Assembly (NCBI GenBank): GCA_038279365.1
Contig: JAYODI010000026.1
Coordinates: 1-62,741 of the forward strand
Direction of reading: 5' to 3'
DNA length: 62,741 nt
From: Candidatus Latescibacterota bacterium
Lineage (GTDB): Bacteria > Latescibacterota > UBA2968
How positions within the stretch are numbered: position 1 is the first letter of the stretch; every line of letters starts with the position of its first letter. Positions 1 to 49,669 of this stretch are shown here, piece by piece. A program made the translations under genes and the position numbers. The notes beneath the pieces are model-generated. The model saw only the letters and a list, made by a program, of their open reading frames with translations, was not told where the DNA came from and made no database searches.

Positions 1-293
1 CTTTAACTCTCCCTTGAAATTTTGTCCATTCGTTTTGGGGGGCAATATACAAACATATGCCAAACATATAAGACTTAGTGCTTTGGGCGTTCTGGGGATT
101 TTGTGGCCAATTATTTGTGGATGCTTTCTGATTTTTAGGCCAGAATAGGCGAGTTATTTGAATAGATTTAATTCATGCTCACATTTTGTGAGGTTTTTTA
201 TATCTGTGTCCTTTTTTATTTGAGAAGGTTAAGACCATCTTTTATCGCCTAAACTTTTACTCTTTTGAGGGGGCTTTTAAAAGAGAAAGGCGG

Positions 294-322
294 TTGACAA
301 ACCCTATAAGCCATTGTATATT
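294..322 (+). promoter_or_regulatory. sigma70-type promoter for a putative small RNA
   Basis: TTGACA (294-299), 17 bp spacer, TATATT (317-322). Confidence 0.65.
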
Positions 323-328
323 TTGGCT

Positions 329-432
329 GGGGCTATGGGATGGCCCAATTGGGATCCTCGAGCATACTAGGGGTGGGATGCCGAGGATCCCGTTTTATAT
401 ACCCAGCACAGTTTCTGTGCTGGGTATTTTTT
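329..432 (+). ncRNA. putative ~100-nt three-hairpin small RNA, family unknown
   Basis: Lies between the promoter and an intrinsic terminator. Stems gggcta/tggccc, gggatcctcg-gcat/atgc-cgaggatccc (351-391) and atacccagcacag/ctgtgctgggtat followed by a T-run. Confidence 0.5.
399..432 (+). terminator. intrinsic terminator
   Basis: 13-bp perfect stem atacccagcacag/ctgtgctgggtat followed by a T tract. Confidence 0.8.
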
Positions 433-550
433 GTGTTTTAGAGTGGGGTTTGCCAGTATGGCTTAAATGTTGGGTTAGGAAATGATAAATATTTGTTTTT
501 ATTTTTTTCATTCCAACTTAATAGAATTCCATTAAACTTAAAAATAATTA

Positions 551-579
551 TTGACACCTGCACCTTTGTTTAGTATTTT
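551..579 (+). promoter_or_regulatory. sigma70-type promoter of the two-gene operon
   Basis: TTGACA (551-556), 17 bp spacer, TATTTT (574-579). Confidence 0.55.
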
Positions 580-627
580 TTGCATGTTGGTTGAATTCTG
601 TGATATCATCTTTAGAGGAGGTGAAAC

Positions 628-912
628 ATGGCAGAAGTAGCAGGTGTTGTTGAAACAGGTATGCTCGCCGATTTAAGCCGTGATTTGCTTAAAGTTGCTG
701 AACGTATCCAAGCAGAGTTAGATGGTGTGGCATTTTATACCATTAAGCCTGAAGCCTTGGCTCAAGTAGAAGCAGCTGAAAAGGCGGTGGATGTGTTGGC
801 TCAAGATCTCAGTCGTGGAGAGGGTGAACTAACCGAATGGCACCAAGTTCTAACAGATTATGAAGCGGCTTGGCATCGGGTGATCGCGTCTTTAGGTGCA
901 AGACAAAACTAA
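628..912 (+). CDS. hypothetical small acidic helical protein (94 aa)
   Basis: Strong RBS AGAGGAGGT before the ATG; promoter upstream. Confidence 0.75.
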   Translation: MAEVAGVVETGMLADLSRDLLKVAERIQAELDGVAFYTIKPEALAQVEAAEKAVDVLAQDLSRGEGELTEWHQVLTDYEAAWHRVIASLGARQN

Positions 913-995
913 AAAACATTATTATTACGTTCGTTTTCAGCGGTGAAGGCTACCGTGGGGCCGCTGATTCAATACAAAAGCAAGGAGAGACACAC

Positions 996-1670
996 ATGGC
1001 CAAAATCATAGATGATGTGAAACGAAAAATTGCCGAATCTGAAGGTTTTCCAATCGAAAAGATTGATGAGTTTGTGGCATTTATCAATGAAGAACCTTAT
1101 ATCACCTCCTCAGGGCTACAGTATAAGATGCTACAGACATATAAGGCTGGAAAATTTGCGGTGCAGGCCGTGATGCCTTCCCAAGAAGAATATGCCCTTT
1201 TACGACGCATGATGGGTTTAAAGGATGACGACCCTTTGGTCGTGATGCGCGGTGAAGTATGGATTGAAGGTTTTGAGCGACCCTTTATAGATTATGGCAC
1301 CACCACACCGAAAAATTTGCGTGGGTTTGTTCGGTTTACCGATTACCCCTTAGAGATGGCGACACGCCGAGCCACCAACCGGGCCATGCGATTGGCCACG
1401 GCAACGGGATTATGCTCTATTGACGAAGTAAAAGAACCCCAATCTGATCAAGTGGGTGATACCGAAGCCACGCAGGGTCAGATAGATTTGCTGCGCAATT
1501 TGGGGCGTAATACACTTTTGACGGAAGATGAACGGGTTCGAATTGAAGCACAAATCACAGAAGGTCTTGGCAAACGTCAGGCGTCAGAATTGATAGATCG
1601 CATCAAGAATAGATTGGATGCAAGGAGAAATAGTCATACACGCGCAACGCCCCCTTCTGTTGCTGCATAA
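996..1670 (+). CDS. putative single-strand annealing protein (RecT/Rad52/Sak-like) with a small C-terminal helical domain
   Basis: RBS AAGGAG before ATG 996. Motifs PYITSSGL and EMATRRATNRAMRLATATGLCSIDE resemble the MA.TRA..RALR core of annealases; C-terminal ATQGQI...ASELID. Confidence 0.55.
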   Translation: MAKIIDDVKRKIAESEGFPIEKIDEFVAFINEEPYITSSGLQYKMLQTYKAGKFAVQAVMPSQEEYALLRRMMGLKDDDPLVVMRGEVWIEGFERPFIDYGTTTPKNLRGFVRFTDYPLEMATRRATNRAMRLATATGLCSIDEVKEPQSDQVGDTEATQGQIDLLRNLGRNTLLTEDERVRIEAQITEGLGKRQASELIDRIKNRLDARRNSHTRATPPSVAA

Positions 1671-3805: not shown

Positions 3806-3882
3806 AGCTTGTATTTTTGATGGGTTTTGATTATCATACTTCCTCGTTAATGTGAGCAAATGTTTTGGTATGGGAGTCATTT

Positions 3883-6237: not shown

Positions 6238-6238
6238 G

Positions 6239-6946
6239 ATGCCACATTTTTTTTCTTGGATTGTGCCAGGACAATTGGCGGGAATGGGGCGGCCTGGATG
6301 TGGCTTGGAGTTGGCGGGGCAAATGATGCCCTATGAGCAACGGTTTTTGTCTTGGCTGATGCATTCTCAATCTTTGCAATCGGATCGGCAAAAGTTGGCT
6401 CGTAGAATCAGTTTGCCCGCTGGTAAACCCGAGTTGGTTGAACGGCGCATGGTGGAATTGTATCACAAGTTTCGCGATGTTTGGCAAGTGCTTGATACGT
6501 ATACAGAAGGATTTGGAAGTGATGGCCAACCTGTAGATCGGTTTAAATTATGTACTGTGTTGCTCGAACAAGACCTTGCTTTTTTGGTGCAACAAGGCAT
6601 TCATACCATTGTCTCTTTGACTGAAACGCCCTTAAATGAAGATGTTGTAGGTGCATTTGATTTTGAAACTTTGCATATGCCAGTGCCAGACCGAGAGGCA
6701 CCCGAACCAGAGCAAATTGATCAATTGATGGCTTATTTGGATAATCAGTTGGGTGCTGGGCGCAATGTTGTGGTGCATTGTTTGGGGGGGTATGGACGCA
6801 CGGGTACCATGTTGGTGTGTTATTTGATTCATTGTGGTGCGACTGCCGATGAAGCTTTGAAAGAAATGCGCCGGTTGCGACCGCTGTCTGTAGAAACAGA
6901 AGTACAGGAGCAAGCGGTATATGCTTATGAGGAGCGGATTCGATGA
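6239..6946 (+). CDS. dual-specificity protein phosphatase (CX5R) with an internal insertion
   Basis: VHCLGGYGRTG P-loop, FSWIVPGQLAG N-terminus, RRLRPLSVET. Confidence 0.85.
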   Translation: MPHFFSWIVPGQLAGMGRPGCGLELAGQMMPYEQRFLSWLMHSQSLQSDRQKLARRISLPAGKPELVERRMVELYHKFRDVWQVLDTYTEGFGSDGQPVDRFKLCTVLLEQDLAFLVQQGIHTIVSLTETPLNEDVVGAFDFETLHMPVPDREAPEPEQIDQLMAYLDNQLGAGRNVVVHCLGGYGRTGTMLVCYLIHCGATADEALKEMRRLRPLSVETEVQEQAVYAYEERIR

Positions 6947-8289
6947 GTGATTTTTCAGTGGCCACCATGCGAAGGCATGCACGCGAATTGTTTGACGTGG
7001 CCATCCAGGCTGTGGATGCTGAGCAATGTGTGCGTCGGTTTGTGCGCTTGGAAGGCGATGTTTTGCATATTGGCAACCAAGACTACAAATTGTCTTGTTA
7101 TACGCGTATTTTGGTGGTGGGAATGGGCAAAGCATCACCCCAGATGGGCGTTGCCTTAGAAGATATTTTGGGGGATCGCATTGCTGGTGGGGTGATCAAT
7201 ACCAAATATGAACATGGTGAAGCGCTTAAACACATTGAGGTGATTGAATGTGGGCACCCTGTGCCCGATGAGGCCGGCGTGGAGGGGGCCAATCGCATCT
7301 TGGCATTGTTGGATGAGGCAGATGAAAAGACTTTGGTCATTTGTGTGATTTCGGGTGGTGGGTCGGCTTTGACACCGGCTCCTGTTCAGGGCGTCTCATT
7401 GGCAGATAAACAAGAGACAACACGTTTGTTGCTTGCGTGTGGGGCCAACATTGTAGAACTCAATGCCATTCGCAAACATTTGTCTCGCCTGAAAGGGGGC
7501 GGGATGGCGCGTGTGGCTTTTCCTGCTACGGTTGTGGCATTGATGTTGTCCGATGTGATTGGTGATCCGATGGATGTGATTGCATCTGGACCGACGGTGC
7601 CCGATACCTCGACATTTCAAACGTGTATGGATATTTTGGACAAGTATGATTTGCTTGGAAAAATTCCCAAAGCTGTAAGGGCGCGGTTTGAAGCTGGTTT
7701 GGCAGGGGATATTGATGATACGCCTAAGCCAGGTGATGTGGCTTTATCACGGGTGCAAAATTTGGTGGTGGGCAGCAACGGTTTGGCGGTATCCGCTGCG
7801 GCCGAAAAGGCCAAAGAATTGGGTTACAATACTTTGGTACTTTCTACGCGCGTTGAAGGTGAAGCCCGTGAAGTGGCCTATGTGTATGCGGGCATTGCCA
7901 AAGAAATTGTTGCTTCGGGCCAACCGATTGTTGCACCTGCCTGTGTGATTTCAGGGGGTGAGACAACGGTGTTGGTGCGCGGTCAGGGCAAGGGGGGGCG
8001 CAATCAAGAACTGGCGCTTTCTGCGGCGATTCAGTTGGCAGGGTGTGAGCAGGTGGTGATGCTCAGTGGGGGAACCGATGGAACGGATGGGCCCACCGAT
8101 GCGGCTGGGGCAATAGTGGATGGGCTAACAATTGAAAGGGCCAATCAAAAAGATATTTCGGCGTTGGCGCATTTAAAAAACAACGATGCCTACCATTTTT
8201 TTAAGCCATTGGATGACTTGATTATGACAGGGGCAACGGGAACCAATGTGGCAGATGTTGCGTTTGTGATGGTGGGGCAGAAGACGTGA
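6943..8289 (+). CDS. glycerate 2-kinase, MOFRL family
   Basis: GMGKAS, GHPVPD, ISGGGSAL, GGETTV, GGRNQE, GTDGTDG, TGTNV. Confidence 0.92.
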   Translation: MSDFSVATMRRHARELFDVAIQAVDAEQCVRRFVRLEGDVLHIGNQDYKLSCYTRILVVGMGKASPQMGVALEDILGDRIAGGVINTKYEHGEALKHIEVIECGHPVPDEAGVEGANRILALLDEADEKTLVICVISGGGSALTPAPVQGVSLADKQETTRLLLACGANIVELNAIRKHLSRLKGGGMARVAFPATVVALMLSDVIGDPMDVIASGPTVPDTSTFQTCMDILDKYDLLGKIPKAVRARFEAGLAGDIDDTPKPGDVALSRVQNLVVGSNGLAVSAAAEKAKELGYNTLVLSTRVEGEAREVAYVYAGIAKEIVASGQPIVAPACVISGGETTVLVRGQGKGGRNQELALSAAIQLAGCEQVVMLSGGTDGTDGPTDAAGAIVDGLTIERANQKDISALAHLKNNDAYHFFKPLDDLIMTGATGTNVADVAFVMVGQKT

Positions 8290-8309
8290 TGGTTTGGCGA
8301 GATGTGAAA

Positions 8310-9188
8310 CTATGCTTCGCGATTAACGATGGTGATACCCACCCCAACCAAGGCCAAGCTCAATAGAATGCCTGGCGAGATGGGATCGCCAAGCAATTGA
8401 TTGCTGATGATGACACCAATAATGGGTGTGGTAAATCCAAATACGGCCAGTTTGCTTGCCGAGTAGCGCTGCAAGAGGCTGGTGAGCAAAATAAAGCAGA
8501 AACCTGCCACAACAAGCCCCTGATATAATACGCCACTGACGACAGATAGGTTGATGTGAATCGGTTGTGTTTCAAAAAGTGCACTGAGGGCAAAAAAAAT
8601 GGGTAAACTGGGGGCGGCCTGCCAAATGAGTACTTTGCCTGGGTGCATATTTTGTGTGAGGCGTTTGAGGTAGATTTGCCGGGCACCCAATAGCATTGCA
8701 CTGCAAAGCACCATCAGATCTCCTAAAACATATTGAAAATCACTTAGGACTATGCTTTCGGCAAAAACAGAAATCACGCCTGCAAATGCGAGTATCATGC
8801 CAATTACTTTGGAGGTGCTGATGCGGTCACCCGCGATAAAAAAGTGGGCAAAAAACGCGGTAAAAAAGGGATATGCCGAAATAAAAATGGTAGATCGGCT
8901 GGCGAGTGTGTGAGCCGTGCCTGCATTGAGCAAATAGATTTGGGTGAGAAAGATGCATACAAGACCTGCAATGCCTTTGCGTTCGTGGGCTTGTAATTGA
9001 AGCGACAACCCCAATGCTTTTGCCCAAATAAGAACAACCAACCCGCCCAATAAAAAGCGAATGCCTGCCAAACACAATGGCGGAATACCTGCCAATGCAA
9101 ACTTGATGGACACGGAGTTGCCGCCCCACAAGATGGCAGTGAGCAGGTTTAAAAATCCGGCTTTTAAGGTGAGGTTGTCATTGCGCAT
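8310..9188 (-). CDS. DMT/EamA family transporter
   Basis: About 10 TM helices in two repeats; LWGGN..IKFAL..IPP...RF. Confidence 0.88.
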   Translation of the reverse strand: MRNDNLTLKAGFLNLLTAILWGGNSVSIKFALAGIPPLCLAGIRFLLGGLVVLIWAKALGLSLQLQAHERKGIAGLVCIFLTQIYLLNAGTAHTLASRSTIFISAYPFFTAFFAHFFIAGDRISTSKVIGMILAFAGVISVFAESIVLSDFQYVLGDLMVLCSAMLLGARQIYLKRLTQNMHPGKVLIWQAAPSLPIFFALSALFETQPIHINLSVVSGVLYQGLVVAGFCFILLTSLLQRYSASKLAVFGFTTPIIGVIISNQLLGDPISPGILLSLALVGVGITIVNREA

Positions 9189-38373: not shown

Positions 38374-39339
38374 ATGAGCGAGAAGCCTTTCGGGGGCGAG
38401 GGGGAAGTCATTTGTATGGTTTGTAAGACGGCCATTCCTGTGGCACGTCTTCAGGTTGTACCTGATGCGAAATTGTGCGTGACGTGTCAGGGAAAAGTTG
38501 AAAGGGGGTTGCTCGACCTTAACGCATTTTTGGTGGGCGATTTGGGGATTGAAGAAGAAAAAGAACCACAACCTTTGGAGATACAAGAAGATCGTTTGGT
38601 GGTAGGCACTTGGTCGGGTGGGTTTTTGGAAGTGGCCGATCAAAGTGGAAAAATGCGTGCGCTGTTGCGCGAAGGCAAAAAAGAAGAGGCACTGGCTTTG
38701 GTGCAGGCATTGCCAATTGAGGCACAGGCTGCACTGGTGGTGGTGGATGAAGATCCAGAAGAAGCCCTTTCTATAACGGGTATGGATCGTTTGGGAAACC
38801 CAGGTTATCGTTCTGAGGTGGTGAGTTTGTTGCCCACCGAGATGCTGACGGGGCTTATTGCCTATGACGGGGAGGAGAAACGGTTTAATACACGGTTGAT
38901 TCAGGCCATGACACCTGGCACATTTAGCCGAACAGTGTCTGATACTTTAGAGCCGATAGACAATGCTGAGGCACGCGCGGAGGTGACTTGGGAGTGGCTG
39001 GAGGCTTTGGCTGAGCTTCTCGATGTGAACAAACGCGCAGAATTGTTGCGCAGTGTCGAACCCGAATTGTTGGAGGACGCGCTGATTACACGTATTCACC
39101 ATTTTAACTTGAACAAAACGGTAACCTCTGTCAATATAGATGGTGTTGAGTGGGGCGTGGATATGTTTCGGGTATTTTCCGAAGACAGTGCCGTGGGGCC
39201 TTTGCCCAGCAAGTTTATTGAAGATGTGAAGGTGGGTAGTGTGATGGATTCGCTTTATGAAGCCGCTCCCGATGTGATGAGTGCGATGGTGCGTGGCGCT
39301 TGGGAGAGGCAATTTGATGGATGGGAGGATTTGGAATGA
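38374..39339 (+). CDS. TraR/DksA C4-type zinc finger fused to an unknown acidic helical domain
   Basis: CMVCKTAIPVARLQVVPDAKLCVTCQ matches C..C...Ip..Rl...P....C..C; RBS GGAGG. Confidence 0.75.
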   Translation: MSEKPFGGEGEVICMVCKTAIPVARLQVVPDAKLCVTCQGKVERGLLDLNAFLVGDLGIEEEKEPQPLEIQEDRLVVGTWSGGFLEVADQSGKMRALLREGKKEEALALVQALPIEAQAALVVVDEDPEEALSITGMDRLGNPGYRSEVVSLLPTEMLTGLIAYDGEEKRFNTRLIQAMTPGTFSRTVSDTLEPIDNAEARAEVTWEWLEALAELLDVNKRAELLRSVEPELLEDALITRIHHFNLNKTVTSVNIDGVEWGVDMFRVFSEDSAVGPLPSKFIEDVKVGSVMDSLYEAAPDVMSAMVRGAWERQFDGWEDLE

Positions 39340-40292
39340 ATCCATTGGCAAGATTAGATTTAAGCCGATTCCAGATTGACGATGAAAGTTTTGTTGGGCA
39401 AGCCATTGCTTTGGGCATGCGTTTTAACAAACTCCCCTCTCAGACATCGGATGCTTTGTTGGGTTTTTTGCGTGCTAAGGGGTTGTATTATGGGCAACGC
39501 AATCGATCTGGCATTGCCATTGCCAGAGATGGTTTGGAGCGCGGTGTGCGCCAAGCGTTGATCTGTTTGGATATGGGGCTTAAAGATACGTCTCAAGGCG
39601 ATCTCAATACGGCTGTTGAGTTGTTGGCGCAGGGTGATTTTGAGGCCATTCGAAAAAATGGATATCAAATTGCTTTTTTCCAATTGCAAGAAATTCGCAA
39701 AAGCAGTTTGGCTTTGCTCACGCGCCCAACGGCTACTTTTTTACAAGAAGAACATCGCAATTTGATGCGGTGGTCTACTTTGGTACCCGAAACGTGGACA
39801 CGGCCTCCAGATGATTTAGAAGAAGAAGCGATGTTGGTTGATGTCCGAACAGATTATGGTGTTTTTTTGCAAACGCAAGCCCGTATGGATTTTCTCAATT
39901 CGATTCCCAATGAGGCGCTTAATCAATTGCAACAATCGGTTTCGGATGGTCGATCTTTTGATGGTTTGTTGCGCAATTTGATTTTGGCGTTGGCGTTGGA
40001 TTTGGAAACACTTTTGCCATCGGCGATGGAAATCGAACGGTTTAGAGAAACGTGTTTTGAACAAAACAAAATTCGGCCTGAGATTCGGGATAAGGTTTTG
40101 CATTTGATGGACCGCCAGCTTGAAGCCAGTGTTTTGAAGGCGTTTCATCGGTCTGAAATTCGTACATCAGTAGAAGATGAAATTGAATTTTTAGAGCAAG
40201 TTTCGGGTGGCGATATGGTCAACTTTTTCTTGTTGCCCGGAAAAAAGGCTGTGACGGCAGATGATTTATTGGGGGGAGAGGCAATCGCGTAA
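39336..40292 (+). CDS. hypothetical helical protein (possibly DUF6178-related), translationally coupled
   Basis: ATGA overlap with the upstream gene and RBS GGAGG; the family guess is from memory only. Confidence 0.65.
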   Translation: MNPLARLDLSRFQIDDESFVGQAIALGMRFNKLPSQTSDALLGFLRAKGLYYGQRNRSGIAIARDGLERGVRQALICLDMGLKDTSQGDLNTAVELLAQGDFEAIRKNGYQIAFFQLQEIRKSSLALLTRPTATFLQEEHRNLMRWSTLVPETWTRPPDDLEEEAMLVDVRTDYGVFLQTQARMDFLNSIPNEALNQLQQSVSDGRSFDGLLRNLILALALDLETLLPSAMEIERFRETCFEQNKIRPEIRDKVLHLMDRQLEASVLKAFHRSEIRTSVEDEIEFLEQVSGGDMVNFFLLPGKKAVTADDLLGGEAIA

Positions 40293-40315
40293 TATTTTTT
40301 TAAAGGCGACGTGTT

Positions 40316-40347
40316 GGGGCGTGCTCGTGAGGGTACGTCCCATTTTT
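40316..40347 (+). terminator. probable terminator
   Basis: ggggcgtgctc-GTGA-gggtacgtccc (with G-U pairs) followed by a T-rich tract. Confidence 0.55.
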
Positions 40348-40444
40348 ATTTTTAAGAACACACAGGGTTTGAAACAGGGTGATGTGATTAAAAGACGAAT
40401 GTTGTTGTATCTCAAAAAGGGTGTGCTTTTTTTGTTGTCGGTAT

Positions 40445-40470
40445 GAACCTCTATCATCCAGGCGGTGTCA
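40445..40470 (+). promoter_or_regulatory. candidate ECF-sigma autoregulatory promoter
   Basis: GAACCT-N16-GTCA about 20 nt upstream of the sigma start codon. Confidence 0.4.
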
Positions 40471-40489: not shown

Positions 40490-41080
40490 ATGACTCCAAC
40501 AGATGCAGAACTGATACAGCGCATATTAAACCGAGACACAGATGCATTTGCTGTGTTGTTTGATCGGTATATGGTTCAGGTGACCGATCACTTGGCACGT
40601 ATGTTGAAAGAAAGTGGTGCCGCAGATGATGTGGCACAAGAAGTGTTTTTGCGTGTTTGGAGTCGGGCAGATCAGTGGTCTGGTGCGGGATCATTTCGGG
40701 CGTGGTTGTTGCGCATTGCGACCAATTTGGCTCTGAATCATTTGCGAGGCAAAAAACGTCGTCGCGAATTGCCTTTGGAGATGCCTTCTCTCTATGACGA
40801 CGATGAAGATGAAAACCTTGTTCCTGGTTGGATGATCGATCACGCATCTTTGGGCCCAGATGCACAGATTGAACAATCGGAACAACAGCAGATGATTCGG
40901 CAAATGATTTCCGATTTGCCAAAAGATAAACGAGAGGTTTTTGAAATGGTTCACAAGGATGAGTTGGCCCTTCAGGAGGTGGCCAAGCGCTTGGACATTC
41001 CTGAAGGAACTGTAAAGTCTCGGTTGTTTCACGCACGAAAAAGATTGGTCCTTGCTTGGCAAGAAAGAACAGGGGAATAG
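40490..41080 (+). CDS. ECF (group 4) RNA polymerase sigma factor
   Basis: ADDVAQEVFLRVW, FRAWLLRIATNLALN (sigma2); EVAKRLDIPEGTVKSRLFHARKRL (sigma4). Confidence 0.95.
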   Translation: MTPTDAELIQRILNRDTDAFAVLFDRYMVQVTDHLARMLKESGAADDVAQEVFLRVWSRADQWSGAGSFRAWLLRIATNLALNHLRGKKRRRELPLEMPSLYDDDEDENLVPGWMIDHASLGPDAQIEQSEQQQMIRQMISDLPKDKREVFEMVHKDELALQEVAKRLDIPEGTVKSRLFHARKRLVLAWQERTGE

Positions 41081-41146
41081 CGCACCACGGGCATTGGTGA
41101 GATGTTTTTTCGCATTTGGACATCATCATGTTTTGGAGGATATAAA

Positions 41147-44100
41147 ATGGCAATTGATATGCAGGCACCGTGGCATAAAGATTCTTGGGATGCATTTTTG
41201 CAAAATGGGTTGCCCCGTTTATTGGCTGACCGTGTGGGGATTGCAGGATACAATATTGAGCAGATAGATACCTATTTTTGTCGGTTGCATTTGTCAGTGA
41301 AGGGAACGCGGGGCTTAACCGATGTGGTTTATGAAAATATCCCTTTGTGTGATGACTTGGGGCGGTTTCGTGTTGATGGGTATACGCGCATAGTGGTACC
41401 CAAACCCACAGAAGTAGATTTGGAAAAGGCCGACATTTTGTGTGTGGGTGAGCAAGTTTTGGGGTTTTTGGCTACACAAATTGGCGACGTGCCAGAGGGT
41501 ATTGTGGGAACAGATGCGATTTTGGCGTGTTTGCCTTTGGCCGAGTGGATTCACGAATTTTTTGTTTCCGAACCGACGTCACAGTATCTGCAAATGACAA
41601 ATGATGTGGATATGCACACCCACTTGCGACGCATTACTTTATACACACTTTTGGGTGAAGCGATTGACGACAAGTATGTCGTTCACCCGTCACAAGAAGG
41701 GCGTGTTTGTTTGTTTGCCACACCCGAAGGACCCAATATTTCGCGCATTTTTGAAGTGGCGTTAGGGGCAACGATTCGAGATGGCAAGTTGATTGTTGTG
41801 GATGATACCCCTGCAATGGCCTTGGGGAGCAATGCGTCGATGATTCCGTTTTTGGAACACGACGATACCAACCGGTCTTTAATGGGCATGAATATGGTGC
41901 GCCAATGGGTGGGCGTGCCAAACCCAAAGTGGCCACGTGATGAGGTGGGTGTTTGGCACACCTACCACAGTGAATATGACGGGCTCAAACCCGAAACAGA
42001 ACCGGCCTTGGTGCAAACGGGTTGTGAGACAGATGATGCTTACTTTTGGAAAGGCTATAATCTGCTGACCGCTTTTATGTCTTGGGACGGCGATACCTAT
42101 GAAGATGGCGTGGTGATCAGTGAGTCGGCGGCAAAAAAAATGACGCAACCCCAAGGTGTGGCATTGGGCGATAAATTGAGCAATCGACACGGTTACAAGG
42201 GGGTGGTGACACGGATTTTACCCGACGCAGATATGCCATACTTGCCCGATGGCACGCCGGTGGAATTGATTGTGAGTGTGTGCTCATTGCCTTCTCGAAT
42301 GAATATGGGGCAATTGCGAGAGGCGGCATTGGGGCGTGTGGCAAAGGCCGAGGGCAAACCCGTGATTGTGCCGCCATTTGCTGGGCCGTCAACGGAAGAA
42401 ATAAAAGGGCGATTGAAAGCCAATGGATTGTCTGATGATGGAATGGAACAACTGACGTTAAAGGGGAATGCACTTCCGCGACGCACAACAGCAGGGTGGG
42501 TGTATTGGGGGCGGTTGAGTCATATGGTGAAAAATAAGATTCACTTTGCGGTGCATCCTCAAGAGAGAGGGCAGTTTTTGGGCGAGATGGAGTTTGTTGC
42601 GCTGAAAGAAGCGGGTGCGGTGGCTCTTGTGAATGAGTTTTTCAATACGTGTTCTGCCGAACATCCAGAAGCCGATTCTTTGGCTGATCGTGTGTCTAAT
42701 GGAACGGTATCACCTGCTGGTGCACCTTCGGCAAGATATGGTGCTTTGACCAGGCGATTAGGCTGTGACGGCGTGGTGGCGTCACTGGGTGATAAAGGCG
42801 TGTCATTTTCAACTAAACAGTCGGGTGATTTTTCTTTGGCGCGTTCGGTGGCGCATCCGTGGCTTTCCGGGCATCAATTGTCTCATATTGGGCAGACCGA
42901 TTTGCCTGAGGGCGAGGCGGTGCAAGAGGCCAACGCGCGTTTGGAACAGATGGTTGCCAAGGGTGCGCCTCAGGTGCTGATTGATCGGGCAACAGACACC
43001 TTGTCAGAGCGGGTTCAGGCTTTTTATAATGTGTTGGTGACACGAAGGGATTTGTGCTTTCAGGCGCGGGTAATTTTTAGCGGGCGTTCGGTCATTGTGC
43101 CCAATAAACATTTTAAATATGACCAAGTGGGTGTACCAGAAGAAATGGCGTGGGCATTGTTTGGGCCGTTTGTGACACGGGCATTGGGCAGTGACACGGA
43201 CGTGAAAAAACGCTCGAAAAAAGCAGAGCAGGCGTTGGATGAGGTGATGGCAAAAATGTGGATTGTTTCAACGCGTGCCCCTGCGGTGTCACCCACTTCG
43301 TTTTTGGCATTTCATCCTGTGCGTGTTTCGGGTGATGCGATTCAAGTGCCCATTTTGAGCAGCAAGCTGATGGATGCCGATTTTGATGGCGATCAAATGG
43401 CTTTGTTGTTGCCCGTGACGGATGAGGGGCAACAGGCTGCGCGCGATCATTTAACTGTTAAGGCACATTTGACCCGCGACCCCAGTTTGATTCGGCGTGA
43501 AAAAATTCACCCCATGCACGACGCGTTATTTGGTTTGGCCACGTTGAGTATGACCGATGCTGGTTTGAAGGCATTGGAAGACATTGCGGGGGAACCTTTC
43601 AAGCGTGAAGGCAAGTTTTTAGATAAGAAGCATTTTATCGCTTTGCTGGAAAATGTGATGATCAAAGACGGGGCAGAAGCGGTGCTGGACTTGTCTGAAC
43701 GGTTGCAAAGAAAAGGTTTTGAAGTGGCCCAGCAAACAGGGGCTTCGATGGGTGCGTTTTTGGGTGGCGACCTTAATTTGCCCAATCCGCCAGAAGGAGA
43801 TGATGTGGATGAGTGGCGATCTTATGTGGATGAGTTGACGGCTGAATTGAGTCCGTTCGATGATTTTAACGATGACGAATTTGGCGTGATCGCCATGTTG
43901 GCCGAATGTGGTGCAAGGGGCAATTGGACACAGTTACGGCACTTTGTGGCCCCTCAGGGGTTGGTTCGCACCGCACGAGGTGACTTGATGCCCATTCGGC
44001 ATTGTTACCGAGATGGTCTCACCCCCCAAGAGATTATCACACGAACCGTTGGCGCACGCTTGGGCTTGGCCAATGCGTTGGCTGAAATGATGGAGGTCAA

Positions 44101-44257
44101 CCGCGATTTGTCCATTCAAGGGGCACCCAGTGGTTACGGTGTTTTGTCACGCGCTCGTCGCTCAGAAAAACCTGGCGTGGTGTTTGCCCGGGCCGCACAA
44201 AAGGGTGAAGTGGACCCTTTGACGGATGAATACAGTCGGTTGTTTGTTGGGGTGTAG
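41147..44257 (+). CDS. miniaturised fused beta/beta' DNA-directed RNA polymerase-like protein (1036 aa)
   Basis: RpoB motifs THLRR, TPEGPNI, IPFLEHDD.NRSLMG.NM.RQ, YEDG, GDKLSNRHGYKG, DMPYLPDGTP, PSRMN.GQ, GQ.LGEME, then RpoC motifs SGRSVI, RAPA, DADFDGDQM, GARG, GL..QE, GARLGLA, all in one frame; RBS GGAGG. Confidence 0.92.
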   Translation: MAIDMQAPWHKDSWDAFLQNGLPRLLADRVGIAGYNIEQIDTYFCRLHLSVKGTRGLTDVVYENIPLCDDLGRFRVDGYTRIVVPKPTEVDLEKADILCVGEQVLGFLATQIGDVPEGIVGTDAILACLPLAEWIHEFFVSEPTSQYLQMTNDVDMHTHLRRITLYTLLGEAIDDKYVVHPSQEGRVCLFATPEGPNISRIFEVALGATIRDGKLIVVDDTPAMALGSNASMIPFLEHDDTNRSLMGMNMVRQWVGVPNPKWPRDEVGVWHTYHSEYDGLKPETEPALVQTGCETDDAYFWKGYNLLTAFMSWDGDTYEDGVVISESAAKKMTQPQGVALGDKLSNRHGYKGVVTRILPDADMPYLPDGTPVELIVSVCSLPSRMNMGQLREAALGRVAKAEGKPVIVPPFAGPSTEEIKGRLKANGLSDDGMEQLTLKGNALPRRTTAGWVYWGRLSHMVKNKIHFAVHPQERGQFLGEMEFVALKEAGAVALVNEFFNTCSAEHPEADSLADRVSNGTVSPAGAPSARYGALTRRLGCDGVVASLGDKGVSFSTKQSGDFSLARSVAHPWLSGHQLSHIGQTDLPEGEAVQEANARLEQMVAKGAPQVLIDRATDTLSERVQAFYNVLVTRRDLCFQARVIFSGRSVIVPNKHFKYDQVGVPEEMAWALFGPFVTRALGSDTDVKKRSKKAEQALDEVMAKMWIVSTRAPAVSPTSFLAFHPVRVSGDAIQVPILSSKLMDADFDGDQMALLLPVTDEGQQAARDHLTVKAHLTRDPSLIRREKIHPMHDALFGLATLSMTDAGLKALEDIAGEPFKREGKFLDKKHFIALLENVMIKDGAEAVLDLSERLQRKGFEVAQQTGASMGAFLGGDLNLPNPPEGDDVDEWRSYVDELTAELSPFDDFNDDEFGVIAMLAECGARGNWTQLRHFVAPQGLVRTARGDLMPIRHCYRDGLTPQEIITRTVGARLGLANALAEMMEVNRDLSIQGAPSGYGVLSRARRSEKPGVVFARAAQKGEVDPLTDEYSRLFVGV

Positions 44258-44288: not shown

Positions 44289-44325
44289 AAGGCGTGTCTG
44301 CAAACAAGCAGACACGCCTTTTTTT
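44289..44325 (+). terminator. intrinsic terminator closing the sigma-polymerase operon
   Basis: aaggcgtgtctgc/gcagacacgcctt followed by a T tract. Confidence 0.85.
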
Positions 44326-44565: not shown

Positions 44566-45096
44566 ATGAAAATGGAACGGTTATTTCACGTGAGCGATCA
44601 GGCTGATATTCAACGCTTCGAACCACGGGTGTCACCTTCGGTAAATGAGGTTGTCCAAGACGACAAGGTGGTTTGGGCCATTGCTGAGAGTTTATTACAC
44701 AATTATTTGTTTCCGCGAGATTGCCCGCGCGTGACGTTTTACGCAGGCGAGCAAACCACGCAAGAAGATCGTGAACGGCTGTGGCAAACGAGTACCGCCA
44801 AACACATTGTGGCCATTGAGTCGTGTTGGGTGAGTAATATGTTGACGGAGACGTTATACGGTTACGTGTTGCCTGACGAGACGTTTGAAAAGACGGATGA
44901 TATCGCACGGTATTACATTTCTCGCAAAGCCGTTGAGCCGATTTCTGTGATCGTTTTTAACAATTTGTTTTTAGAATTGTCTCGGCGCGATGTTGAGGTG
45001 CGAATTCTTCCGTCTCTTTGGGCTTTGCGAGACGCTGTGGTGAATTCTACAGTAAATTTCTCAATTATTCGAATGAGAAATGCCCAACCGAGATAG
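44566..45096 (+). CDS. conserved hypothetical protein (DUF6886-like)
   Basis: LFHVS....I.RFEPR, VWAI, NYLFPRDCPRV, FSIIRMRNA. Confidence 0.7.
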   Translation: MKMERLFHVSDQADIQRFEPRVSPSVNEVVQDDKVVWAIAESLLHNYLFPRDCPRVTFYAGEQTTQEDRERLWQTSTAKHIVAIESCWVSNMLTETLYGYVLPDETFEKTDDIARYYISRKAVEPISVIVFNNLFLELSRRDVEVRILPSLWALRDAVVNSTVNFSIIRMRNAQPR

Positions 45097-45353: not shown

Positions 45354-45404
45354 GATCGACTTGTGTTTGTAGAAGTGCAATGCGTGTTTGACCAAGGAGA
45401 TGAG

Positions 45405-45800
45405 ATGGGCAAGAAAAAACGATTGGCCGAGGCCGAGTGGGAAGTGATGGACTGTGTGTGGGATTTTGACCATCAGGTGACGGTGCGCGAGGTGCACGAA
45501 TTTTTGTATCCCAATGGGGAGAAAGCCTATACCACCGTTCAGACGATTATGAATATTTTGACGGAAAAAGGCGTTCTGTTGCGTCAAAAAATTGGACCCG
45601 TCAATGTCTATTCACCGGCTTTGTCACGTGAAGATGCCGCCCGTGATGAAACGCAGTCTTTGGTGGCGCGTATGTTTGAAGGCTCGTTTGGTGCATTGGC
45701 CACTTATTTGGTGAATTCTGACACGCTTTCTCGCGAAGAATTGGACGAATTAAAGTCGCTTATTGATGAACGTGAGCGCGATCAGGGAGGAGGTAAATAA
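45405..45800 (+). CDS. BlaI/MecI/CopY family repressor
   Basis: LAEAEWEVM..VW, AYTTVQTIMNILTEKG, FEGS; RBS AAGGAG. Confidence 0.93.
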   Translation: MGKKKRLAEAEWEVMDCVWDFDHQVTVREVHEFLYPNGEKAYTTVQTIMNILTEKGVLLRQKIGPVNVYSPALSREDAARDETQSLVARMFEGSFGALATYLVNSDTLSREELDELKSLIDERERDQGGGK

Positions 45801-48800
45801 TGATCCATACCTTGATTCAACTCGCCGAATCTTGGTGGCCGCTTTATGCGGTACATATGCTCGAAACGTCGTTGTTCATTTTGGTTGTGTGGGCACTTGA
45901 TCGGTGGGTGCATTTGGATACGCGACTGCGCTATTCATTGTGGCTGTGTGCATTGGTGAAGACGTTTGTGCCGCCTTTTTACGCGTTGCCTTTGCCTACG
46001 TTTTTGTCTGAGGCACCCACGCCCGTTCAGCCGGTATCCTTTGGTGGGGAAGCTGTGTGGTCAGAGATGTCTTATGTTGCGCCTGTTGCGTTGCCACCTG
46101 AGCCGATTCCAATGGTCTTTTGGGCTTTTACGCTGTGGAGTGTATCAGTTATTGTTTTTGTTGGGATGACGCTGTGGCGCAATCTCGCTTTTCAACGCAC
46201 GTTGGGCATTGCGAATCCCGTGTCTTTGTCTGGCGATTTGGACGATTTGACCCAAGGAGCCAATCTCAAAGTTTTCTCAAAAGCCAATCTCACATCTCCG
46301 TTGCTGGTGGGCGTGGTGAAACCGCGTTTGTATTTGCCATCCACTTGGCAAACCTGGACGCCCACCCAATTACGCGGCATTGTGGCGCATGAATTGGCGC
46401 ATTATCACAACCGCGATTTGTGGGCATTGGCCTTCCAAGTTTTGGCCACGGTGTTTTGTGGTCTTAATCCTTTGATTTGGCTGGTGAACCGTCGCTTGGC
46501 GCATTTGCGCGAGTTGCGTTGTGATGAAGATGCGTTGCTCAAGTCTGGCATTTCACCCGTGGAATATGGCAAGTTGCTTTACGCGTTTTTAGATGCCAAT
46601 GCACACCCAGGGTTGCCCGCGTTGGGCTTTAACGAAAAAGACACACCGCTTAAGAAACGTTTTGAACACGTTCTCAATTTTAAGGGGGGCACGATGAAAC
46701 GATCCAAATGGCAATACGCAATTCCAGTTTTGGTCGCCTTGGCGATTGTGCCGTTTTCAATTCGAGAAACATATTCACAACCTCAGGAAGTGGTGCAAAA
46801 AGCAAGTGACACACCTTTATTGAACACGCCATCAAGTGAACAGGGGAGAATACGAGTCAAACCAATCAAGCGGATTCCAGCCTCCTACCCAGAGAGCGCA
46901 GAGAAGAATGGCATTGAAGGGTATGTGCTCGCGGAGTTGACGATTGATCCTGATGGCACGGTCAGTGGTATTACCATGCTTGAAGGTGATACGATGTTTT
47001 TGAATTCGGTGACAACAGCATTGCTTCAATACCGCTATACACCGTTTACACACGCAAATTCGATTAAGAAAAAACAAATCATTGCGTTTCAATTGGCAGG
47101 AGACAGTCGCCCTGTGTATAGTCCTGCCGAAGAGGTGATGAAAAAATCAGACTTTGGCCTAATGGTTGTGATGGGTGAAGCACCCGGGGCTAATTCTGAA
47201 AATAAAACATCTACAGTTTCAGCAGATGTTTTAACACGGGTAGATTTTATGCCCTTAGGTGAAAAGCATGTTAAGATGTCATTGCTTGTGGGGGTAGACG
47301 GTGCGACGCCACGGGACCAAGAAGTGCTAAAAGCCAATCGGTCAGAGATATTAAAGACCATTCATAAGATTGTGAGTGGTGACGGACGAGATGTTTTTTA
47401 TGAAGAAGGTATGCGTTTTCAAGTGCGACAAGAAATTCGTTTCATGCTTGAACATCAATTGAAGGTCAAGATCAAAGATGTCAAACTTGGAGATGCCCAG
47501 GCCAAAACAGAGCTTACTCAAATGTCTGATATTTGGGTGAACTACAAGGGTGATATGTTAATAAACATGAATAAAGCCGTTACTGTCAATGAGCTGGAGG
47601 CGTCGTTTAGGTCATTAAAAAATGATCAAAATACAAAGACATTGTTGATGCGGGTAGATCGTGGTGCGCCACAACATATCATTGATGCCATTCAACAAAG
47701 TGCCACACGTGTAGGCATTGAGGTGCGCGATACTGGGGGCCCCCCATTGATTCAAGAGCCATCAGGTATCACACAGGCTGATGGTCTTCAAATTTTACAG
47801 TTTTTTAAAGTGGATCATAAACCCAAGCCGATTACCAAAGTGGATCCAATTTACCCACCTAATGCCAAAGCCAAAGGATTAACGGGTAAAGTGTTTCTCA
47901 AGTTTTTAATTCATACAGATGGCTCTGTAAGTGACGTGAAGGTGTTACGGGGAAAGGAAGAATTCCACCAAGCCGCAATTGACGCCATCCTCCAATACAA
48001 ATTTGAACCGGCCAAACATCAAGGTCAAATTGTACCCGTGTGGATGACTCAACCGATTTCATTTCAGTTAGAGAATTCTCTGGATAAATCAGAATCTTCA
48101 ACACCTGAATCGGATATGTTAAAGGTTTTGGAAACGAGAAATGCTGAAAGGAACCAAATTCTCGATGCCTCTCAAGTAGACGAAAAACCTCATCCCGCTC
48201 GAATCGTCACACCACAATATCCAGAAGAAGCAAAGGCGCAAGGCATCGAAGGAAATGTATTGGTGAGTGGTGTGGTGAATACGGATGGAACCGTAAGTGA
48301 TTTAAAGATTGTGAGTGGTGATGAGATGTTTCATGAGTCTGCTTTGGTAGCCGCAAAACAAATGCGGTTTCGCCCCGCTAAACATCAAGGCCAAACGGTT
48401 CCTGTGCGGTTGACAATGCCGATGGATTTTCGACTGAAAAGTTCCCAAAGCAATAGACAGTTACCATTGGGGCTTAGAGGAGGGTTTTTCGGGAATAAGA
48501 GAATGTCTGAAATCTGGATCAATACCAAAGGAGATTTGTTAATAGATCAATCCAAAGCCGTCACTCTGGAAACTCTGGGTTCTGAATTGGCACAGTTAAA
48601 AGAACAAAAGAATATTGATACCATATTGTTGAAACCTGATGTCAAAACACCTATGGACCACGTGCAAAAGGTTTTGGATGTTGTGGGGCAAACAGGGTTG
48701 AAAGTGCATATGTTCAGTTTTGATCCTGCTGAACTTAAGGAACGCAATAGGCCAAAGGATCTGAATAACATAGAGTTCTACCAGGCCGATGTGAAACCCG

Positions 48801-49669
48801 AACCGATTCATCAAGTGGCACCTGTTTACCCAGAAATAGCGCGTAAAGCGGGTTTGACGGGTAAGGTGTTTTTGAAGTTTCGTGTGAATGTGGATGGCAG
48901 CGTGAGTGATGTTTCAGTGTTGAGAGGGCAACAAATTTTCCGAAAAGCCGCAATGGAGGCGATTGAAAAATTCCGTTTCAAGCCCGCCGAATATGACGGC
49001 AAAATTGTTGCTGTGTGGATGACTCAACCCGTGAGTTTCAGATTGGGATTGGGAAAACCATTAGAAGCACAAACGCTTGATTTGGGAACCTTTACCATAA
49101 AAGTACCAAATGGTCATGATGGCAACGCATTGATACAACCTCGCCTGACCTTAAATGTCATATCGGCGGGTGCGGCAGATGTGATCACTGACGATTTGGA
49201 CAAAGCACAAAAAATGGCATCGTCTTATCTGTCTTCAATTCCTTTAGATCAGTGGGTATCGGCAGAACAACAAAATGCAATTTTAGAAGGTGTGCGAGAG
49301 CAAGTGAATGTCGGTTTTGGTGCGCCATTGATTAACAGTGTGACGTTTTCAAACCTCACCTTAACCCCTTCCGAATATCTCGCTGAGAATCGGGAATTCA
49401 AACTACACACCAATTTCCCAAATCCATTTAATCCTGAAACGGCGATTCAATATGAAGTGGCCGAACCCGTTTTTGTGAGAATGGAAATCTACAACGTCAC
49501 TGGGCAAGTCATTCGTACATTGGTTGCAGAAGACAAATCTCCTGGCAAATATGAAACACGGTGGGATGGCAAAGATGATCAGGGCAAACTTGTCGCAAGT
49601 GGTGTCTATTATTATCACATCAATGCGGGATCATTCAATGCCGTAAAGAAAATGCAACTGGTGAAGTAA
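45800..49669 (+). CDS. BlaR1/M56 metallopeptidase fused to four TonB C-terminal domains, ExbD-like and FliL-like domains and an FlgD-Ig-like tail
   Basis: HELAH, NPLIW, RELRCD; four YP..A...G..G.V repeats; NFPNPFNPET...WDGKD..G..VASGVY. Confidence 0.85.
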   Translation: MIHTLIQLAESWWPLYAVHMLETSLFILVVWALDRWVHLDTRLRYSLWLCALVKTFVPPFYALPLPTFLSEAPTPVQPVSFGGEAVWSEMSYVAPVALPPEPIPMVFWAFTLWSVSVIVFVGMTLWRNLAFQRTLGIANPVSLSGDLDDLTQGANLKVFSKANLTSPLLVGVVKPRLYLPSTWQTWTPTQLRGIVAHELAHYHNRDLWALAFQVLATVFCGLNPLIWLVNRRLAHLRELRCDEDALLKSGISPVEYGKLLYAFLDANAHPGLPALGFNEKDTPLKKRFEHVLNFKGGTMKRSKWQYAIPVLVALAIVPFSIRETYSQPQEVVQKASDTPLLNTPSSEQGRIRVKPIKRIPASYPESAEKNGIEGYVLAELTIDPDGTVSGITMLEGDTMFLNSVTTALLQYRYTPFTHANSIKKKQIIAFQLAGDSRPVYSPAEEVMKKSDFGLMVVMGEAPGANSENKTSTVSADVLTRVDFMPLGEKHVKMSLLVGVDGATPRDQEVLKANRSEILKTIHKIVSGDGRDVFYEEGMRFQVRQEIRFMLEHQLKVKIKDVKLGDAQAKTELTQMSDIWVNYKGDMLINMNKAVTVNELEASFRSLKNDQNTKTLLMRVDRGAPQHIIDAIQQSATRVGIEVRDTGGPPLIQEPSGITQADGLQILQFFKVDHKPKPITKVDPIYPPNAKAKGLTGKVFLKFLIHTDGSVSDVKVLRGKEEFHQAAIDAILQYKFEPAKHQGQIVPVWMTQPISFQLENSLDKSESSTPESDMLKVLETRNAERNQILDASQVDEKPHPARIVTPQYPEEAKAQGIEGNVLVSGVVNTDGTVSDLKIVSGDEMFHESALVAAKQMRFRPAKHQGQTVPVRLTMPMDFRLKSSQSNRQLPLGLRGGFFGNKRMSEIWINTKGDLLIDQSKAVTLETLGSELAQLKEQKNIDTILLKPDVKTPMDHVQKVLDVVGQTGLKVHMFSFDPAELKERNRPKDLNNIEFYQADVKPEPIHQVAPVYPEIARKAGLTGKVFLKFRVNVDGSVSDVSVLRGQQIFRKAAMEAIEKFRFKPAEYDGKIVAVWMTQPVSFRLGLGKPLEAQTLDLGTFTIKVPNGHDGNALIQPRLTLNVISAGAADVITDDLDKAQKMASSYLSSIPLDQWVSAEQQNAILEGVREQVNVGFGAPLINSVTFSNLTLTPSEYLAENREFKLHTNFPNPFNPETAIQYEVAEPVFVRMEIYNVTGQVIRTLVAEDKSPGKYETRWDGKDDQGKLVASGVYYYHINAGSFNAVKKMQLVK

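Follow-up and report, generated by a model that had tools for sequence, protein, structure and literature searches.

How much of a bacterial RNA polymerase can be removed while start of transcription with a sigma factor is kept? This question is raised by a locus in Candidatus Latescibacterota bacterium (assembly GCA_038279365.1, contig JAYODI010000026.1, positions 1 to 62,741; this whole stretch of 62,741 nucleotides is called the window below). Here, a sigma factor gene of the extracytoplasmic function (ECF) type is followed by a gene for a strongly reduced, single-chain RNA polymerase, the mini polymerase. The initial annotation of this locus had claimed that the flap is deleted and that the zinc-binding domain is missing after the GEME motif. 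It had also claimed that the segment at 42914-43030 is the clamp coiled coil of beta', selectively kept as a docking site for sigma2, and from this had argued for a physical partnership with the adjacent sigma factor and for a non-standard mode of -35 recognition.

We found that the mini polymerase has lost the flap, the zinc ribbon and the rudder, and has kept the clamp-helix hairpin together with intact catalytic motifs. The polymerase and sigma genes are paired, occur together across genomes and share a conserved promoter. We lean, if only slightly, towards a two-protein holoenzyme, in which sigma2 would sit on the hairpin, a standard bipartite promoter would be used, sigma4 would be held otherwise than by a flap, and the operon would be driven by its own product in a positive feedback.

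Composition and fold of the mini polymerase

Polymerase residues are numbered from the opening of the reading frame at 41102 (+ strand, 41102..44257). Three Pfam families are recognised in this one chain, namely Rpb2 domain 6 (PF00562, 149.9 bits against a cut-off of 23.4, E 1.4e-43), Rpb2 domain 3 and Rpb1 domain 2. The best sequence matches in the Protein Data Bank are bacterial beta chains for amino acids (aa) 134-515 and beta' chains for aa 653-794. Judged by its sequence, the protein is a fusion of beta followed by beta', with about one third of their normal combined length. The equivalog cut-offs for rpoB (TIGR02013, 190.0 bits against 801.15; NF001616, 193.7 against 896) and rpoC (TIGR02386, 126.4 against 963.5) are missed. 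One ordinary rpoB (1,255 aa) and one ordinary rpoC (1,363 aa) are present on another contig of the same genome (6.03 Mb, 199 contigs, 98.5% complete), so the mini polymerase is an addition and not a replacement. These two subunits of the organism itself, not the lengths of the E. coli proteins, served as comparators for the flap and the zinc ribbon.

In the mini polymerase, 22 residues lie from the start of EDGVVISES (aa 334) to that of GDKLSNRHG (aa 356), whereas the organism's own beta has 269 residues from ED..ISE (aa 759) to GDK (aa 1028). Alignment of an 85-member family profile with the own beta by hhalign (aa 103-523 to 388-1252, E 9.4e-54) has a single gap of about 245 residues at the flap. 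By both motif spacing and alignment gap, the flap domain, including the flap-tip helix that binds sigma4, is absent from the mini polymerase, as had been claimed. Most of the beta lobes are gone as well, with about 100 residues preceding aa 103, which aligns to residue 388 of the own beta.

The structure predicted by AlphaFold2 from the family alignment has a mean predicted local distance difference test (pLDDT) of 94 and a predicted template modelling score (pTM) of 0.92. The beta half of this model was superposed by VIA-align on a clostridial beta chain (8i23_C) with Z 30.0 and a root-mean-square deviation (rmsd) of 2.2 Å over 497 residues, at 33% identity. The superposition spans 13..539 of the model and 5..1136 of 8i23_C, which means that an N-terminal remnant is kept. 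The motifs EHDDxNR, GDK..NRHG.KG and DFDGD are invariant or nearly so across the 30 and 85 relatives compared.

Within the beta half, a segment at 41555-41640 (aa 152-180) lies opposite the rifampicin region of the own beta, FFGSSQLSQF..QTNPL.ELTHKRRLSA. Several rifampicin-contact positions differ in it, and at a guess the enzyme may be insensitive to the drug.

The beta' half is reduced in a similar way. The GEME motif stands at aa 494, and from there to the hairpin just two cysteines are present (C517 and C555), against the four of the zinc ribbon in the own beta' (C66, C68, C81, C84). The four-cysteine zinc ribbon is therefore absent, and the initial annotation was right on this point too. 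The family profile and the own beta' (E 3.2e-33) are collinear from residue 262 to residue 769, a stretch that takes in RV.FSGRSVI, DFDGD and the bridge helix; residues 110-260 of the own beta' are mostly without counterpart. The rudder is lost: between beta' 306 and 340, before the RxRQNLLGKRVDYSGRS segment, the alignment has two gaps, one of 14 columns and one of 11. The bridge helix is retained, being aligned by hhalign to GARKGLADTALKTA and modelled by AlphaFold2 as a helix at 975-1006. After it, nothing but the last 45 residues follow, with the model ending opposite E. coli beta' 1355. The trigger-loop region would be missing, since this length leaves no room for it after the bridge helix.

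When folded separately (aa 556-1051), the beta' half reaches a pLDDT of 86. Of its 496 residues, 477-479 could be superposed on residues 16 to 1355 of E. coli beta', with a Z of about 30 and an rmsd of about 5 Å. Identity to E. coli and M. tuberculosis beta' is 26%. As nearly all residues of this half have a beta' counterpart, it is best described as beta' with its peripheral parts excised. Judging from alignment and model together, the scaffold that is kept consists of the two double-psi barrels, the Mg site and the bridge helix, together with a small clamp.

Translation probably begins not at 41102 but at ATG 41147 (M16), because residues 1-14 have a pLDDT below 50 and relatives are 1,028-1,040 aa long, beginning with MxLxxxAPWHK. 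The features of the polymerase gene are the following:

41147..44257, + strand: single-chain mini RNA polymerase gene, 1,036 aa from M16
41147..42796, + strand: beta-like half (aa 16-565), with rifampicin-region and fork segment, EHDDTNR, beta double-psi barrel, GDK..NRHG.KG, GEME and the C-terminal clamp piece of beta
42122..42166, + strand: junction left by the flap deletion (aa 341-355), with a short helix and a loop in place of about 245 further residues of the own beta
42797..42901, + strand: N-terminal strands of beta' without zinc ribbon (aa 566-600), containing an invariant HPW
42902..43039, + strand: clamp-helix hairpin (aa 601-646), the canonical sigma2 docking element, supported by hhalign, AlphaFold2 and a hidden Markov model (HMM) of the hairpin only
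43379..43393, + strand: catalytic DFDGD (aa 760-764) inside MDADFDGDQ (aa 757-765), with D760-D764 invariant in 30 sequences
44024..44119, + strand: bridge helix (aa 975-1006), followed by 45 residues matching the beta' C-terminus

The clamp-helix hairpin

The segment that had been read as the clamp coiled coil (42914-43030) encodes aa 605-643. In the AlphaFold2 model, aa 602-619 and 624-645 form two helices joined by a turn. The hhalign partner of the hairpin is residues 262-305 of the own beta' (ending in DALFDN), the point at which that alignment begins.

With an HMM restricted to the 51 columns of the hairpin, all 55,047 six-frame open reading frames (ORFs) of at least 50 aa in the genome were searched. 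The HMM retrieved the hairpin itself with 63.3 bits and the clamp helices of rpoC with 19.9 bits (E 0.0015), while the next match had 10.6 bits (E 1.2). Compared by HMMER alone and as a single sequence, the hairpin stayed below significance (4.2 bits, i-E 210). Based on the profile result, with rpoC as the only other significant match, we regard the resemblance to the beta' clamp helices as real and specific, beyond chance, and the earlier reading of the segment holds.

Conservation across the 85 relatives is seen along the hairpin, with counts of 66 for A610, 70 for N611, 66 for R613, 71 for L614, 55 for R616, 56 for A622, 82 for P623, 79 for L626, 64 for A630, 69 for L634 and 58 for V638. 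In the own beta', the residues opposite N611, R613, L614, P623, L626, L634 and V638 are N, R, L, P, I, L and V. By these comparisons the hairpin is the one protruding element that survives from the N-terminal third of beta'. Its selective retention, with flap, zinc ribbon, rudder, lobes and the region after the bridge helix deleted, was thus described correctly.

Family and distribution

A locus search with the single protein gave just one true relative, so an alignment-based search was needed. Word-indexed and exhaustive profile searches delimit a compact family of 1,000-1,100 aa, with about 70-80 full-length clusters at 50% identity. The next matches beyond it are full-length fused rpoBC proteins, at about 440 bits. 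In all named sources, members are labelled “hypothetical” or by their Pfam domains only, and in PHROGs only generic RNA polymerase beta families were found.

Among contigs from one genome per species, 205 stretches matched the search patterns and 187 of these encode a relative. Counts out of 80 loci given below refer to the best 80 of these 187. The loci are labelled Latescibacterota, Poribacteria, Gemmatimonadota, several Planctomycetota, several Chloroflexota, Hydrogenedentota and one Chthonomonadaceae, labels that can be wrong for metagenome-assembled genomes. The context is cellular, with cellular genes as neighbours and loci on chromosomes of 4.5-8.4 Mb.

The polymerase is present in 65 of 168 Latescibacterota genomes, and in 19 of the 52 that are at least 90% complete and at most 5% contaminated. 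Its occurrence is patchy, with 21 of 21 genomes in one genus and 0 of 15 in another, closed genomes included. The polymerase is an accessory gene.

Linkage to the sigma factor

The gene upstream of the polymerase contains PF04542 (Sigma70_r2, 62.1 bits) and PF08281 (Sigma70_r4_2, 53 bits), and scores 111.3 bits with TIGR02937 (cut-off 42.9). By these domains it is an ECF (group 4) sigma factor, composed of sigma2 and sigma4 only.

The sigma factor was detected by phmmer in 77 of the 80 loci, and in 73, which cover at least six phylum-level groups, a close ortholog (E < 1e-40) precedes the polymerase gene in the same orientation. Of the seven remaining loci, two start inside the polymerase gene (L088, L091), one has a partial sigma gene at the contig start (L056), two have the sigma gene split into two frames (L076, L089), one has only a weaker ECF factor on the opposite strand (L081), and one has lost the sigma gene (L042). 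The two genes overlap by 4 nucleotides (nt) in 23 of the 73 pairs and by 1 nt in 4, giving 27 stop/start overlaps with heuristic start calls. A gap of 1.2-2.3 kb separates them in 11 of the 73. The gap in locus L016 (4165-5958) holds a gene for a 597-aa ABC exporter, between sigma (3457-4059) and polymerase (6001-9087); these three genes are probably co-transcribed, because no second promoter motif was found in the gap.

An all-against-all comparison of neighbouring ORFs revealed no further component common beyond close relatives. The other large cluster (67 loci), next to the polymerase on the opposite strand, is read as antisense frames of the sigma gene. No fusion of sigma and polymerase was found among the 120 and 150 proteins listed as matches, a search in which longer lengths were not covered separately. 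With PADLOC, the polymerase had no match and the sigma factor a single marginal one.

In the phylum (168 genomes), both genes occur in 62, the polymerase without sigma in 3, sigma without the polymerase in 1, and neither in 102. Sigma profile scores fall into two groups, orthologs at 247-330 bits and other ECF factors at or below 127 bits, apart from a few fragments. Presence was set at a best E <= 1e-45, a value chosen after the score distribution was known, and the counts are descriptive and not a test, related genomes being non-independent. The three genomes with the polymerase only comprise one with the sigma gene deleted (G143), one with an N-terminally truncated polymerase (G146) and one with the gene at a contig end (G149). 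In the genome with sigma only (G156), the gene lies 377 nt from the contig end, with the polymerase side missing.

The locus of G143 (L042, 5747-9156) carries a C-terminal remnant of sigma (..NPEEHQ) fused to unrelated sequence, and a carbonic-anhydrase-like gene on the other strand. The polymerase frame in it is still open (1,047 aa), with DFDGD intact. One genome of 8.4 Mb (G070; loci L102 and L103) carries two divergent modules, with sigma factors 52% and polymerases 40% identical, which suggests two separate acquisitions and not a recent duplication. Distinct promoters for these two modules were considered and rejected, as both share the consensus described below, one with a spacer 1 nt shorter.

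The linker between sigma2 and sigma4 (aa 101-127, 40790-40870) contains an acidic run and VPGWMID..LGPD, and is conserved across phyla. In an alignment of 30 sigma factors, conservation reaches at least 90% at P112, W114 and P123. ECF linkers are described as generally non-conserved in a published account (PMC6648896).

Promoter and search for targets

The pattern GAAC-N16-G-N-GTC is present in 73 of 74 sigma upstream regions (the 73 loci and the window, 56 distinct sequences). The spacing is identical in all 73 promoters, though 14-19 was permitted, and a variant stands in the remaining region (L059). Extended, the consensus reads TGAACY-N13-CGGTGTC, usually ending about 20 nt before the start codon. 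In the window this distance is exactly 20 nt, and GCAGAGG is the likely ribosome site. The E. coli factor sigmaE recognises GGAACTT and GTC, according to PMC6648896. The predicted promoter has the usual ECF layout, with a GAAC-type -35 and a GTC-type -10 preceding the sigma factor's own gene.

Around the polymerase gene, the module is laid out as follows:

40315..40342, + strand: terminator-like hairpin, 12-bp stem and T run, closing the upstream gene and insulating the module
40444..40469, + strand: ECF-type promoter, with -35-like TGAACC (40444-40449), 13-nt spacer and -10-like CGGTGTC (40463-40469)
40490..41080, + strand: ECF sigma factor gene, 196 aa from ATG 40490, with sigma2, conserved acidic linker and sigma4
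44289..44320, + strand: terminator-like hairpin, 13-bp stem with 8 GC pairs and T run, 32 nt past the polymerase stop codon

A weight matrix run over the 6.03-Mb genome gave 31.9 bits for the module's own site, which was in the training set, and 18.1 bits for the next best. The weaker matches (<=18.1 bits) sit inside ORFs or have no gene downstream. The exact pattern had two matches in this genome, the module's own site and one CGGGGTC variant, against one for a reversed-pattern control. In five of five other genomes it retrieved the module's own site. Extra exact matches did not exceed the control in three of these genomes (G128, G098, G010), and were above it in two (G042, G080). Two identical extra sites in G010 were examined as targets and rejected, since they fall within a pair of nearly identical stretches, apparently on the antisense strand of a duplicated gene, and no ORF that follows them on their strand is convincing. 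No second promoter site was found in the 73 loci (1.03 Mb). The module looks like a closed, self-activating bicistronic unit that is itself its sole recognisable target.

Transcript matches come from one salt-marsh metatranscriptome library, in which three contigs (151-183 nt, no differences) match at 41595-41892 and 42354-42536. That library leaves the greater part of the operon uncovered, the promoter and the sigma gene among the uncovered parts. These contigs are only a hint of operon transcription, carry-over of DNA being a possible source.

Does the sigma factor bind the mini polymerase?

In the mechanism we propose, one promoter would drive the dedicated ECF sigma factor and the 1,036-aa single-chain polymerase, between the two terminator-like hairpins. 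Sigma2 of the co-encoded factor would settle on the clamp-helix hairpin, giving a holoenzyme of two polypeptides and about 140 kDa. This would initiate at TGAACY-N13-CGGTGTC, at its own promoter first, and so produce a positive feedback. With the flap missing, sigma4 must be held at the -35 by something else; our guess is that the conserved linker VPGWMID..LGPD packs on the polymerase and holds it there.

Docking of sigma2 would most likely explain why the hairpin was retained. A complex prediction with polymerase aa 300-1051 and the whole sigma factor scored 0.45, against 0.00 for the best of 3 controls, which is weak support. Of 157 solved complexes, 116 passed the mark used, as did 2 of 215 mismatched pairs; at scores of 0.60 or less, those that passed were only 18 of the 157, together with both mismatches. 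Agreement between runs covers at least 29% of contacts, the partner pLDDT is at least 67, and own alignments were used. This pass may reflect mere likeness, ECF holoenzyme structures being solved.

Gene order, co-occurrence and the shared promoter strongly back a partnership between sigma and polymerase. As for the physical contact that the initial annotation had proposed, these three lines agree with it, the complex prediction adds its weak pass, and alanine at two of three known sigma-binding hot spots speaks against it. The claim of a non-standard -35 recognition finds no support in that wording. The known sigma4 anchor is gone, but TGAAC at a fixed 16-nt distance from G-N-GTC is ordinary for ECF factors. 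With such an ordinary -35/-10 layout, only the protein anchor of sigma4 must therefore differ, if the mini polymerase uses this promoter.

Several results weigh against a sigma-dependent mini polymerase. The complex prediction, besides being a weak pass, gives no contacts. In E. coli beta', R275Q, E295K and A302D impair holoenzyme formation, according to PMC8321222. At these three positions, the family has alanine in 66 of 85, alanine in 64 of 85, and arginine in 38 or alanine in 20 of 85, while the own beta' retains R, E and A. Such changes are compatible with a re-tuned, possibly private interface. The D..QE of sigma region 2.2 is ordinary (D47, Q50, E51), and could equally bind the host core. 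Mutual information over 53 sigma-polymerase pairs, with average product correction, placed 11 sigma2-hairpin pairs in the top 300 against 7.9 expected, which is no enrichment; this sample is too small for the method, and no region pair was noteworthy. A closed genome of 4.6 Mb (G143) keeps an intact polymerase though its sigma gene is deleted to a remnant. The promoter needs sigma4 at a fixed distance, for which known enzymes use the flap that is absent here. Finally, no target beyond the module's own promoter was found by pattern and matrix scans of the own genome, the five other genomes and the 73 loci.

Some of these points would be expected if the sigma factor worked only with the host core and the mini polymerase were its regulated product, acting free of sigma, alone or through another factor. 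The promoter may possibly be read by the host polymerase instead, its standard layout being readable by an enzyme with a flap, and the sigma factor is a typical ECF protein with canonical core-binding residues. Two alanines at the hot spots, the polymerase without sigma in G143 and the weak complex prediction fit as well. We nonetheless hold this to be unlikely, though by no means negligible. It leaves unexplained that the hairpin is the only protruding beta' element kept, and is conserved, while zinc ribbon and rudder were deleted. No sigma ortholog turned up away from the polymerase, the lone sigma-only genome having its gene at a contig end. Moreover, the regulon appears to be the module alone, and the conserved linker is unusual for an ECF sigma factor.

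It is rather improbable, in our estimate, that the hairpin was kept for a reason other than sigma, either as a minimal-clamp structure gripping the DNA-RNA hybrid or as a dock for an NGN-domain factor. Factors of this kind (NusG/Spt5 type) also use the clamp coiled coil in cellular polymerases. The sigma hot-spot residues are unconserved, the conserved L614, L626, L634, V638 and P623 would also suit packing within the hairpin, and no co-variation with sigma was detected in the 53 pairs. Yet the protein could do without other clamp-associated elements, the module has no linked NusG-like gene, and the linkage to sigma is very strong; the conserved small residues A610 and A630 at hot-spot positions would also be more typical of a tight protein contact. 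The chance that the mini polymerase is mainly a sigma-binding regulator or decoy, replacing a missing anti-sigma factor with RNA synthesis beside the point, seems very small. No conserved anti-sigma gene lies beside the ECF sigma factor and the only promoter found is the module's own, as this would have it, but the invariant or near-invariant DFDGD, GDK..NRHG.KG, EHDDxNR and bridge helix are hard to explain without polymerase activity.

Returning to the two-protein holoenzyme, we extend it tentatively, with somewhat less than even confidence, to a self-contained, horizontally spread system. A core of 115 kDa and a private ECF sigma factor would make up the smallest known sigma-dependent holoenzyme. 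It would recognise a bipartite promoter without flap, zinc ribbon, lid-side exit channel, alpha or omega, place sigma4 through a rigid conserved linker and, next to the host polymerase, form an orthogonal circuit with positive feedback.

Comparison with known polymerases

One of the closest known systems is the bacterial holoenzyme that contains an ECF factor (E. coli sigmaE-RPo, M. tuberculosis sigmaH and sigmaL; 5zx3, 6kon). Both share the catalytic fold and motifs, the clamp-helix hairpin, a two-domain sigma factor and a GAAC/GTC promoter. However, the ECF holoenzyme is built of alpha2-beta-beta'-omega with about 3,300 aa, and the mini polymerase of one chain of 1,036 aa, which has no flap-tip helix for sigma4, no zinc ribbon or rudder, probably no trigger-loop region, and almost no lobes. 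The module also differs in its altered hot spots on the sigma face, and in a sigma linker that is conserved and not variable.

Full-length fused RpoB-RpoC proteins (NF007172, NF011417; about 2,840-2,890 aa) have the same beta-beta' order in one chain. These are complete subunits that replace rpoB and rpoC, whereas the mini polymerase has about one third of their length and coexists with separate rpoB and rpoC. It misses both cut-offs (207.3 bits against 5372 for NF007172, 208.2 against 4632 for NF011417).

YonO of the B. subtilis prophage SPbeta, by function the nearest single-chain relative that has been characterised, is likewise a single chain of about 100 kDa with a two-barrel active site. 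Its description (PMC5467207) reports no homology to trigger loop, flap, lid, zipper, rudder or lobe and very distant homology to cellular enzymes, and leaves promoter recognition and the need for factors open. On that description, the present family is set apart from the prophage-encoded enzyme, as it is chromosomal, readily recognised as beta plus beta', equipped with clamp helices and paired with a sigma factor. Non-canonical polymerases of jumbo phages and those of P23-45 are also reduced two-barrel enzymes without alpha and many cellular modules. They are viral and mostly split or fused to tail proteins, and the portions of the two reports available (PMC7598289, PMC10770324) describe no pairing with an ECF sigma factor.

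No published description of the family was found in the full-text literature, a search that most subscription journals lie outside. The text and one supplement of the ECF reclassification paper do not mention Rpb1, Rpb2 or rpoB; its other supplements might list such a neighbourhood. The module looks like an undescribed, self-contained mini transcription machine.

If it works as a holoenzyme, it shows how little of a bacterial polymerase suffices for sigma-dependent, promoter-specific initiation. A natural minimal enzyme would then allow direct comparison for the roles of flap, lobes, zinc ribbon, rudder, trigger loop, alpha and omega, and cells of several phyla would run a second, private polymerase beside the essential one. 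Such second polymerases are known for phages and organelles; to our knowledge, there is none for free-living bacteria. A compact sigma-polymerase pair with a defined promoter of 26 nt would also be an attractive orthogonal expression system and a small structural target.

Genomic neighbourhood

Two genes lie upstream of the module on the + strand, at 38374-39339 (321 aa) and 39321-40292 (323 aa, without family match). The N-terminus of the 321-aa protein is a C4 zinc finger of DksA/TraR type, a motif of proteins that bind RNA polymerase. Both genes adjoin the module in 17 of the 80 loci, all from close Latescibacterota, and a link to the mini polymerase is possible.

Just past the module's terminator, a DUF6886 protein (198.8 bits) is encoded at 44566-45096 (+), and was matched in 1 of 80 loci (L004). 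It is followed at 45363-49669 (+) by a gene for a BlaI-type repressor and then one for a 1,289-aa BlaR1/M56 protein, which are found downstream of the module in 15-17 of 80 loci. The BlaR1/M56 protein combines four TonB_C domains with an ExbD-like part and a tail of the type IX secretion kind.

Over the whole window (1-62741), GC skew is positive in 30 of 31 segments of 2 kb, and the cumulative skew climbs steadily. Long ORFs are mostly on the + strand, as expected for one replication arm.

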